Shown: positions 59,688-61,404 of the stretch, in pieces
How positions within the stretch are numbered: the first letter of the stretch is position 1
Layout: each line of letters opens with the position of its first letter
Source of the DNA: Escherichia coli
GTDB taxonomy: Bacteria; Pseudomonadota; Gammaproteobacteria; Enterobacterales; Enterobacteriaceae
Strand: one strand, 5' to 3'
Assembly: GCF_003334405.1 (NCBI RefSeq)
Contig: NZ_QOWM01000008.1
DNA: 64,000 nt
The notes under the pieces: generated by a model
Database searches by the model: none
The model's input: only the letters and a program-made list of their open reading frames with translations
What the model was told of the DNA's origin: nothing
Translations under genes and position numbers: made by a program

Positions 59688-60479
59688 ATGAGCGAGAAAT
59701 TAAAGATAGTCTATCGCCCATTACAAGAATTGTCACCGTATGCGCACAACGCCAGGACGCACAGCCCTGAGCAGGTGGCACAACTGGTAGAAAGTATTAA
59801 GCAATTCGGCTGGACTAATCCGGTGCTGATTGACGAAAAGGGCGAAATTATTGCGGGTCACGGTCGTGTTATGGCGGCTGAAATGCTCAAAATGGATTCT
59901 GTTCCGGTCATTGTTCTGTCTGGCCTGACGGATGAGCAGAAAAAGGCGTACCGCCTGGCAGATAATCGCCTGCCGATGAATGCTGGCTGGGATGAAGATC
60001 TGTTGCGGATGGAGCTGTCGGACCTAATCAATGCTGATTTTGATGTCTCCCTGACAGGCTTCATCCCGACAGAAATTGATGAACTGTTGACGGATGTTTT
60101 GCCCGGTACAGGAAATGAGGAGGAGCCGTATACGACGAAAATTGATACGCCTGTTTATGAGCCGTCGGGCGGTAAACCGGATATCAGTGAACTGTACGAC
60201 GATACGAAAACTCAGGAGCTGATCAGCCGGATACGTTCGGCGTCCCTTGAGCCTGATATTGAGAAATTCCTCCTGTGTGCGGCAGAACGTCACACGGTGT
60301 TTAATTTCAGCAGAATTGCGGACTATTACGCTCACGCCCCCTCTGAAATTCAGTGTTTTTTCGAGGAGTCGGCGCTGGTGATCATTGATTATCAGCAGGC
60401 TATTGAAAATGGATTTGTCCGGATGACGCAGCGCATGGTGGAGATCATGCATGGTGGTGAGGAGGAGGAATATGCGTGA
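59688..60479 (+). CDS. ParB-like nuclease-domain protein
   Basis: N-terminal ParB/Srx-like motif region (NPVLIDEKGEIIAGHGRV); 263 aa. Confidence 0.6.
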   Translation: MSEKLKIVYRPLQELSPYAHNARTHSPEQVAQLVESIKQFGWTNPVLIDEKGEIIAGHGRVMAAEMLKMDSVPVIVLSGLTDEQKKAYRLADNRLPMNAGWDEDLLRMELSDLINADFDVSLTGFIPTEIDELLTDVLPGTGNEEEPYTTKIDTPVYEPSGGKPDISELYDDTKTQELISRIRSASLEPDIEKFLLCAAERHTVFNFSRIADYYAHAPSEIQCFFEESALVIIDYQQAIENGFVRMTQRMVEIMHGGEEEEYA

Positions 60480-61404
60480 TGATTTTTGCGCCTTTATTCT
60501 GACTCACGGGCGACCGGACAAAGTTCTGACTTACCGGACGTTGCGTCGTGCTGGCTATACCGGGAAAATTTTTATCGTTGTTGATGATGAAGATAAGACA
60601 CGGAATCAGTACATGGCTGAATTTGGTGAACAGGTGCTGGTGTTTTCCAAAGCCGATATCGCCAGTCGTTTTGACGAAGCCGATAATTTCTGTGACCGCC
60701 GCTCAATTTTTTACGCCCGTAATGCCTGTTTCGACCTGGCAAAACTGGTCGGGTGTAAATACTTCATTCAGCTCGATGATGATTATCACGAGTTCCAGTT
60801 TCGGGTGGATCGCAACTATGACCAGGCCTATTTTCCGATAAGGAAACTGGATGCGATCCTTTCTGAAATGCTGGCGTACTACGAATCAATACCTGCTCTT
60901 TCCATCGCTATGTCGCAGGGCGGGGATTTTCTTGGTGACAATGGCGGCCATGCTTCGTGGGTGAAACGCAAGGCAATGAACAGCTTTATCTGTTCGGTTG
61001 ATCGACCGTTCTCATTCATGGGGCGCATTAACGAGGATGTGAATACGTACACGAATCTCGGTCGCTGTGGTGAATTGTTTATGACGATCGGTGCTGTCCA
61101 GTTAGGGCAGAAACAGACGCAGAAAAACAGCGGCGGAATGACCGAGCTGTATCTGGATTCCGGAACCTACGTTAAAAGTTTTTACTCCGTCATGTATGCG
61201 CCGTCGTGCGTAAAAATCTCACTGATGGGTGCCAGCCATAAACGCATTCACCATCAGGTCACCTGGAACAACGCTGCAGTAAAAATCCTTCACGAAAAAT
61301 ACAGGAAGAAGACACCCTGCATATCAATGGGGGTGACAAATGATTCCGTATTCGAAAGTCGAGTCTCTGGCAGCGTGCCGGATGACTGCACAACAAATCG
61401 CTGA
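60451..61404 (+). CDS. Hypothetical prophage protein (317 aa) coupled to the ParB-like gene
   Basis: Overlaps the ParB-like gene 3' end; contains acidic QLDDDYHEF; no confident family assignment. Confidence 0.4.
   Translation: MVVRRRNMRDDFCAFILTHGRPDKVLTYRTLRRAGYTGKIFIVVDDEDKTRNQYMAEFGEQVLVFSKADIASRFDEADNFCDRRSIFYARNACFDLAKLVGCKYFIQLDDDYHEFQFRVDRNYDQAYFPIRKLDAILSEMLAYYESIPALSIAMSQGGDFLGDNGGHASWVKRKAMNSFICSVDRPFSFMGRINEDVNTYTNLGRCGELFMTIGAVQLGQKQTQKNSGGMTELYLDSGTYVKSFYSVMYAPSCVKISLMGASHKRIHHQVTWNNAAVKILHEKYRKKTPCISMGVTNDSVFESRVSGSVPDDCTTNR

Follow-up and report, generated by a model that had tools for sequence, protein, structure and literature searches.

A predicted TAGT-family glycosyltransferase in a Rac-like Escherichia coli prophage is paired with a ParB-like protein whose C-terminal domain accompanies the enzyme in viruses of bacteria and archaea

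We analysed a 64,000-nucleotide stretch of Escherichia coli DNA (contig NZ_QOWM01000008.1; "the window" below means this whole stretch) that carries two plus-strand open reading frames (ORFs), 59688-60479 (263 aa) and 60451-61404 (317 aa), whose ends overlap. A preliminary description made from the sequence had given the overlap and these coordinates, both of which agree exactly with the ORF list. On profile and model evidence, the second protein is a GT-A glycosyltransferase of the TAGT family, while the first joins a ParB/Srx N-domain to a C-terminal partner domain (CTD) of ~110 aa. The pairing of CTD and enzyme is mutual and exclusive in the viral loci evaluated, and we tentatively propose that the pair modifies phage DNA.

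To characterize the second protein, we compared it with family profiles. It matched the TAGT family of Pfam, PF20691, with an E value of 1.9e-34 and a score of 119.9 (residues 15-229 against model positions 4-205 of 205), and the phage family phrog_842 at 1.2e-103. Within the 310-aa product of the start codon that we favour (60472..61404, plus strand; see below), four elements are invariant in homologues down to ~37% identity: R14 (60511-60513), D102-D103-D104 (60775-60783), E188-D189 (61033-61038) and H260-H261 (61249-61254). The preliminary description had pointed to an acidic QLDDDYHEF segment while finding no motif to assign. The segment is indeed present, and its DDD is invariant in every aligned homologue; the absence of an assignable motif, however, was not borne out, since this segment represents the DxD metal/nucleotide-sugar motif within an R...DDD...ED signature. 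The form R...DDD...ED[Y/F] is the signature of phage DNA GT-A enzymes and of the trypanosome base-J glucosyltransferase JGT (bioRxiv 10.1101/2023.12.21.572611); in the window enzyme the residue after ED is V, not Y/F. Residues ~279-310 form a lineage-specific tail that overlaps the next ORF.

A single-sequence AlphaFold model of the enzyme was unusable, with a predicted local distance difference test score (pLDDT) of 38. We used instead a model in which partner and enzyme were joined by a 25-residue linker, built from an alignment of 38 paired diverse sequences. This fused model reached a pLDDT of 83.5 and a predicted template modelling score (pTM) of 0.83; the linker was disordered and the enzyme confidently modelled, with the GT-A (nucleotide-diphospho-sugar transferase) fold. 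When the model was compared with the PDB by Foldseek, the best matches were all GT-A nucleotide-sugar transferases (E 6e-5 to K4CP; also ThuS/SunS, SpsA and GpgS), and the structural neighbours include TarP and other envelope GT-A enzymes. Against AFDB50, the top matches to the enzyme part were all TAGT-domain proteins. A match to a structural or packaging protein devoid of catalytic features, which had been considered beforehand as the outcome that would speak against an enzyme, was not what these profile and structure searches returned: they led to glycosyltransferase motifs. The enzyme had no match in NCBIfam, its profile had none among PDB sequences, and it had none in PADLOC, so that it is not a catalogued defence gene.

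The subfamily is large, comprising 1324 clusters (50% identity) at E <=1e-3 and 493 at E <=1e-30. Some members are fused to a second TAGT-like glycosyltransferase (phrog_842 at 1.8e-21 and 2.5e-37) and others to a galactose-3-O-sulfotransferase-like domain (8.6e-21), suggesting that the sugar, once transferred, can be lengthened or further modified and that the product is a glycan on some acceptor. Fused glycosyltransferases occur in P0128, P0130, P0164, P0147 and P0148. A C-terminal motif resembling SAM-dependent methyltransferases, judged by eye and with no PHROG match, is seen in some members. None of the N-terminal extensions fused to the enzyme matched ParB; these extensions consist of P-loop domains (weak AAA_18 match) or of second glycosyltransferases.

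The first gene is a full-length version of ynaK (59688..60479, plus strand) and matched phrog_620 at 8.5e-91 over residues 1-250. Identical E. coli records annotate it as "ynaK: ParB/Srx family N-terminal domain-containing protein". Conservation in this protein is strongest in the CTD, residues 140-263 (60105..60479, plus strand), which belongs to no Pfam family; its best Pfam match was the sub-threshold "Phage L5 gene 47-like". Its profile nevertheless retrieved 3142 proteins, the top ones nearly all stand-alone, 125-140 aa long and without annotated domain, and found only chance-level matches among PDB sequences (Adhesin A 0.035, RNase E 0.13). The CTD contains a Tyr/Pro-rich peptide, YTTKIDTPVYEPSGGKP (60129-60179, plus strand), with the conserved pattern Y-T-x-K-I-x-x-P-x-Y-E-P-x-x-x-x-P, where the two tyrosines are Y148 and Y157 of the window protein. 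It also has R201-H202 (60288-60293, plus strand), a strand SALVIID (60369-60389, plus strand) and several helices. In the fused model the CTD has a pLDDT of 81-98 and the Tyr/Pro peptide is ordered.

The preceding residues 1-140 (59688..60107, plus strand) form the ParB/Srx (ParB-CTPase fold) N-domain. The ParB/Srx type proposed for this gene in the preliminary description was confirmed: Pfam ParB_N (PF02195) matched at 2.5e-6, and the family profile matched the N-domains of Myxococcus xanthus ParB, Noc and Spo0J in the PDB at 5e-10 to 1e-7, with the N-domain alone aligning. We then located the equivalents of the nucleoside triphosphate (NTP) motifs of ParB, taking as reference Box I NxR, Box II GERR and Box III ENxxR. 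These are N21-A-R23 (59748-59756), G57-H-G-R60 (59856-59867) and D92-N93 (59961-59966), all on the plus strand. Among 113 distinct partners, N21 is conserved in 98%, R23 in 86%, G57 in 99%, R60 in 89%, and D92-N93 in 88-97% (N93 97%). By our own reading of the motifs, the partners have His or Asn where GERR has its glutamate; NTP binding is therefore plausible, while hydrolysis is uncertain. The nearest profile relatives of the N-domain are N-terminal regions of DNA methyltransferases (phrog_498, 1.2e-50; PADLOC MTase_II, 2.2e-38), and many tblastn matches in phage records are annotated as adenine methylase. A canonical partition ParB was considered for this protein and rejected: TIGR00180 scored 38.5, below its cutoff of 58.45, only the N-domain aligned, there is no helix-turn-helix (HTH) domain, and no parA gene is adjacent. 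Lacking ParA and HTH domain and falling below that cutoff, the family is misleadingly labelled as "chromosome (plasmid) partitioning protein" in phage records.

To ask how regularly the two proteins occur together, we collected loci starting from the enzyme, in two IMG/VR scans and in phage records, and 163 of these loci extended far enough upstream for evaluation. A CTD protein lies upstream of the subfamily glycosyltransferase in every one of them (163/163). In 158 this is a simple pair, with the CTD gene directly upstream on the same strand (139 with the ParB N-domain, 19 with the CTD only), and the genes of such pairs usually overlap by 8-17 nt. One locus (L110, 2287-3855) encodes ParB N-domain, CTD and enzyme in a single 522-aa ORF; another (L128, 1628-3867) has a ParB-CTD gene followed by a fusion of a P-loop kinase to the enzyme; and three (L106, L118, L151) carry a divergent second glycosyltransferase between partner and enzyme. 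The whole pair is duplicated in tandem in L051 (5607-8117). The converse search, starting from stand-alone CTD proteins, found the enzyme no more than 1 kb downstream in 79 of 79 evaluable loci and directly adjacent in 77. The pairing is thus seen from both sides. In contrast, the module can do without the ParB N-domain: the partner is in many cases a stand-alone CTD protein of ~130 aa, and in the loci examined the N-domain is often absent from the module, the CTD never.

The pair was seen in Lactobacillus phage phi jlb1, in the haloarchaeal virus HHTV-2 (Haloarcula host), in Vibrio phages of ~191 kb and in E. coli prophages; enzyme homologues, for which the partner gene was not read, occur in Nocardia and Porphyromonas phages. 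The hosts of the pair are listed as Proteobacteria, Firmicutes, Actinobacteria and haloarchaea. A host range that includes both bacteria and archaea points to a universal acceptor.

Several observations suggest that the CTD and the enzyme form a physical complex: the two genes appear translationally coupled, all three domains are fused in L110, the pair is duplicated as a unit in L051, and the fused chain yields the model described above. The interface is inferred from that model, which comes without predicted aligned error (PAE) or coordinates.

The start of the second gene bears on this coupling. Initiation at ATG 60472 (Met8 of the 317-aa ORF), giving 310 aa, seems more likely than initiation at 60451, because this ATG follows a strong Shine-Dalgarno sequence, AGGAGGAGGA, is the start chosen by PGAP, and coincides with the beginning of the phrog_842 match at residue 8. 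In E. coli SE11, PGAP places the start at the equivalent of ATG 60472, and the product is WP_001204037.1, of 310 aa. The ATG overlaps the stop codon of the ParB gene by 8 nt (ATGCGTGA), and the Shine-Dalgarno sequence, read from the sequence at 60460..60469 (plus strand), lies within the 3' end of the ParB gene. The overlap and the position of this ribosome-binding site bear out the coupling of the two genes proposed in the preliminary description. When compared with diverged enterobacterial copies, both genes gave dN/dS values of 0.06-0.18; together with the strong PHROG matches, this shows that both ORFs are real genes under selection and not chance frames. Many E. coli chromosomes carry this region with 100% identity: a 2.3-kb query (59400-61700) had a match in 1619 of 5426 complete E. 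coli genomes, with a coverage of >=80% in 867.

The element that carries the pair is a defective Rac-like lambdoid prophage with the gene order lysis genes, trkG (58075-59550), pair, terminase. The pair had been described as lying between trkG and packaging/tail remnants, and this is correct: trkG is upstream and a terminase/J chimera downstream. Together with its hairpin, trkG (58075-59660) makes up a moron of low GC content (0.34-0.40) that has been inserted after the lysis genes and ahead of the pair. The hairpin, found by a consensus scan only, is G+C-rich, terminator-like and followed by a T run (59637..59660, plus strand); it lies 3' of trkG and 27 nt before the ParB start, and late transcripts probably reach the pair by antitermination at this hairpin. 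Downstream, an 83-aa ORF (61340..61591, plus strand) resembles an internal piece of a terminase small subunit (phrog_309, 8.3e-23); it is a hypothetical protein in the SE11 annotation and lies outside the module. It is followed by an in-frame chimera (61595..62716, plus strand) of a terminase small subunit (phrog_51, residues 1-138) and a fragment of the tail-tip protein J (phrog_31/NF049904, residues 136-365). Comparison with the intact SE11 prophage by blastn showed that this chimera is the product of a ~16.2-kb deletion with its junction near 62006, which removed all head and tail genes. Given the chimera and the loss of these genes, the window prophage cannot package DNA. In E. coli K-12, ynaK (b1365; NC_000913.3 1425377-1425640) is an 87-aa N-terminal remnant of the 263-aa gene, placed directly after trkG as in the window, and the partner domain and the glycosyltransferase have been deleted from Rac. 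K-12 ydaY is the counterpart of a tail-region gene of the intact prophage.

Clustering of all neighbours in 43 dereplicated loci revealed no conserved third gene (a dioxygenase, hydroxymethylase or kinase was sought); only terminases recur. In most loci the pair lies immediately upstream of the gene for the terminase small subunit. The terminases that follow it are unrelated: the large subunits belong to phrog_2, 9, 15, 38, 3717 and 5653, and the small subunits to phrog_57 and 606 (phrog_51 in the window). Three stand-alone-CTD pairs, whose neighbours were annotated with Pfam, lie among genes for SSB, ERF, helicase, primase and N6/N4-methyltransferase, or several kb from the terminase.

We next compared the pair with characterised systems. 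The T2/T6 beta-glucosyl-HMC-alpha-glucosyltransferase is, like the window enzyme, a phage-encoded PF20691 member with a GT-A fold (T6: 4.7e-9, score 36.9), but the T6 and window enzymes have no detectable similarity to each other (best BLASTP E 1.6; hhalign probability 0.07%). The T6 enzyme adds a second glucose to alpha-glucosyl-5-hydroxymethylcytosine (5hmC) and so needs a dCMP hydroxymethylase and an alpha-glucosyltransferase, both of which the window prophage lacks; unlike the window enzyme, it has no CTD partner gene beside it. No alpha- or beta-glucosyltransferase and no synthesis of hydroxymethylcytosine is annotated in the SE11 prophage region or in the examined flanks of phi jlb1 and HHTV-2. 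The name of phrog_842, "beta-glucosyl-HMC-alpha-glucosyltransferase", was considered as a statement of function and rejected for want of similarity to the T6 enzyme; it serves as a superfamily label only.

The GT-A enzymes associated with TET/5mYOX dioxygenases, and JGT, share the TAGT/GT-A class and the signature with the window enzyme (third residue V here). The TET/5mYOX-associated enzymes act post-replicatively and neighbour ParB and terminase genes in metaviromes. They and JGT use 5hmC or 5-hydroxymethyluracil (5hmU) supplied by a neighbouring dioxygenase, whereas the window pair has no linked dioxygenase, C5-methyltransferase or hydroxymethylase; in place of the dioxygenase it has its obligate ~110-aa partner. 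A further parallel comes from a subclass of phage thymine dioxygenases, for which ParB-like proteins without DNA-binding domain are required activators, on dsDNA only; in 5mYOX176/ParB176 both the N- and C-terminal ParB domains are needed for activation (PMC13229309). ParB176, like the window partner, combines a ParB N-domain and a C-terminal domain, has no recognisable DNA-binding domain and is encoded beside a modifying enzyme, although its effector is an iron/2-oxoglutarate dioxygenase and the window effector a glycosyltransferase. The closest relatives of the window N-domain are prophage fusions of a ParB N-domain to a DNA methyltransferase (the phrog_498 and MTase_II proteins above), in which a fused SAM-dependent methyltransferase replaces the CTD and the separate glycosyltransferase. 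Their genes lie about one-third along temperate Streptococcus phage genomes, which, judged by genome position alone, is consistent with a pre-packaging slot. The K-12 YnaK protein is the same gene at the same locus, reduced to 87 aa, with CTD and glycosyltransferase lost.

Altogether, we favour a reading in which an enzyme that is expressed late and depends on its partner glycosylates phage DNA once this has been replicated; we advance this reading tentatively, as one that may well be right. A DNA-modification partnership, one of the roles raised in the preliminary description, emerged as the most plausible theme given the TAGT identity, the kinship of the ParB N-domain with phage methyltransferases and the ParB-activated dioxygenases (PMC13229309). 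Further links to DNA are the CTD-only variants among replication genes and the ParB-N relatives on DNA methyltransferases, and DNA is the substrate of those viral and kinetoplastid TAGT relatives that have been characterised (bioRxiv 10.1101/2023.12.21.572611, PMC13216743). In the mechanism we envisage, antiterminated late transcription would pass the hairpin after trkG, and partner and enzyme would be made in equal amounts. The enzyme would work only with the ~110-aa partner domain, in a tight complex held through the CTD. The GT-A enzyme should be metal-dependent, would probably invert, and would use a nucleotide-sugar donor (a uridine diphosphate sugar); D102-D-D104 may bind metal and diphosphate, R14 the donor, and E188-D189 may provide the catalytic base. 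The ParB N-domain, where present, would bind nucleotide and keep the enzyme on dsDNA, by analogy with the ParB-dependent dioxygenases and the ParB-methyltransferase fusions. The sugar would be moved onto replicated phage DNA shortly before packaging, which would protect that DNA from restriction once it enters the next host. What we infer here is that the two proteins form a complex, that DNA is modified, that the donor is the sugar named above and that the modification is protective.

Several points weigh against glycosylation of DNA by this pair. The subfamily is known from sequences and models alone, and the complex depends on a linker-fused AlphaFold model. No TET/JBP or thymidylate-synthase-like Pfam match was found within 10 kb of the pair on three further contigs, and no source of 5-hydroxymethylpyrimidine is annotated in the intact SE11 prophage. 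Since the canonical DNA bases have no hydroxyl, a DNA acceptor would involve a chemistry that, to our knowledge, has not been described for Leloir glycosyltransferases. The characterised DNA-acting TAGT relatives all use a hydroxymethyl base or a sugar already on one. The eukaryotic TAGT relative GREB1 reportedly glycosylates a protein (PMC7968844). In the window, moreover, the head and tail genes are lost, so protection of packaged DNA cannot be the current role there. Because no source of 5hmC or 5hmU is present, the acceptor is probably not a hydroxymethylpyrimidine. A more specific version of DNA glycosylation is a self-sufficient, one-step reaction that places the sugar directly on a canonical DNA component (an exocyclic amine or other) without prior hydroxymethylation; we regard this as possible but doubtful. 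If true, a DNA modification chemistry that has yet to be described would be common among temperate phages of both bacteria and archaea, and many E. coli strains would carry it in Rac-like prophages. In the literature searched, no DNA modification has been described for phages that carry the pair.

Glycogenin glycosylates itself, and the enzyme could likewise modify a protein, most simply its own partner. The Tyr/Pro peptide (Y148-T-x-K-I-x-x-P-x-Y157-E-P) would then enter the active site and be O-glycosylated. The module would in this way bring along a universal acceptor, and what it makes for use would be the glycoprotein. We consider this unlikely. A few partner ORFs, as called, lack the N-terminal peptide (L114, L098 and L104; 97-99 aa), and conservation over 17 residues is more like that of a docking peptide than of an acceptor site. 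A glycosylated 110-aa helical protein would also have no apparent function, and the repeated ParB-N fusion and the DNA-metabolism and terminase contexts would be left unexplained.

Another target altogether is conceivable, such as RNA, a nucleotide or immune-signalling molecule, or an envelope polymer, with the ParB-like part as a mere regulator. TarP is a prophage enzyme that alters the host surface (superinfection exclusion), and it is, with other envelope GT-A enzymes, among the structural neighbours found here; the pair occupies a moron-rich slot beside trkG, and no source of hydroxymethylated bases is present. Yet Gram-negative, Gram-positive and archaeal hosts share no envelope acceptor, and the host range across bacteria and archaea therefore weighs against cell-envelope targets. 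No membrane or secretion feature was noted, although no formal test for such features was made; outside the pair, the ParB-N clade concerned occurs in fusions with DNA methyltransferases, and the genomic contexts are replication and packaging genes. All in all, a target of this kind seems distinctly unlikely.

That the genes in the window are passengers of a decaying prophage, of no use to the cell, would fit the loss of ~16 kb of head and tail genes and the decay of the K-12 locus to the 87-aa ynaK fragment with the glycosyltransferase gone. This is highly unlikely, however, as both frames are intact and identical in many strains, every family-invariant residue is kept, and the lineage is under purifying selection; it would, moreover, concern present-day use only and leave the protein identities untouched. 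Finally, processing of pac sites, the other role suggested in the preliminary description, in which a ParB-like "nuclease" would recognise or cut a pac or cos site as part of the packaging machinery with the 317-aa protein as an accessory, matches the position directly before the terminase small-subunit gene in most loci but is scarcely credible, because the downstream terminases belong to at least six unrelated families, making a specific mechanical partnership unlikely, many modules have no ParB domain, some of these lie inside replication modules far from the terminase, and the glycosyltransferase motifs of the second protein, an enzyme, are intact while no nuclease motif or other nuclease feature was found.

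Some other features of the prophage were noted. An island of GC ~0.32 on the minus strand (50556-52039) carries two ORFs in the same orientation, one of 310 aa and one of 184 aa, of which the shorter looks hydrophobic and membrane-like; neither had a PADLOC match, and the island may be an uncharacterised defence or moron cassette. At the same position SE11 carries a DUF262/GmrSD-like gene, a TPR protein and an IS3 element as cargo. Upstream of the lysis cassette lie two paralogous small ORFs, 55556-55984 (142 aa) and 56135-56530 (131 aa), whose SE11 counterparts are annotated as TolA or TolA C-terminal-domain proteins; they are candidate prophage TolA-like lipoproteins. The DUF262 gene of the intact SE11 prophage (L001, 8131-9813) is GmrSD-type and ParB-N-related. 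GmrSD-type enzymes restrict glycosylated DNA, and its coexistence with a putative DNA glycosyltransferase in the same prophage may be meaningful.

Neither the enzyme family nor the ParB fold is new, nor is the notion that ParB-like proteins assist in DNA modification; Iyer et al. reportedly defined TAGT in 2013 (NAR). Hundreds of phage genomes carry "solitary" TAGT glycosyltransferases of undefined function (PMC13216743), and most metagenomic GT-A genes have no linked base-hydroxylating enzyme, some of them lying near ParB and terminase genes (bioRxiv 10.1101/2023.12.21.572611). Three points were not found in the literature searched, which did not include Iyer et al. 2013, a work that may mention a ParB linkage: the obligate Pfam-less partner domain, the independence of this CTD from the ParB N-domain, and the subfamily-wide absence of a hydroxylating enzyme. 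In this subfamily the "solitary" enzyme never occurs by itself: it always has beside it a small partner domain that lacks annotation and in many cases is joined to a ParB N-domain. Two misleading annotations, "partition protein" and "beta-glucosyl-HMC-alpha-glucosyltransferase", are corrected. As the pair is native to E. coli and K-12 lacks it, the question of its target can be tested directly in K-12. If the target is DNA, the pair would represent a new route to glycosylated DNA, with a bearing on restriction evasion, phage therapy and sequencing artefacts; if it is the partner protein, it would represent a new kind of phage glycoprotein system.

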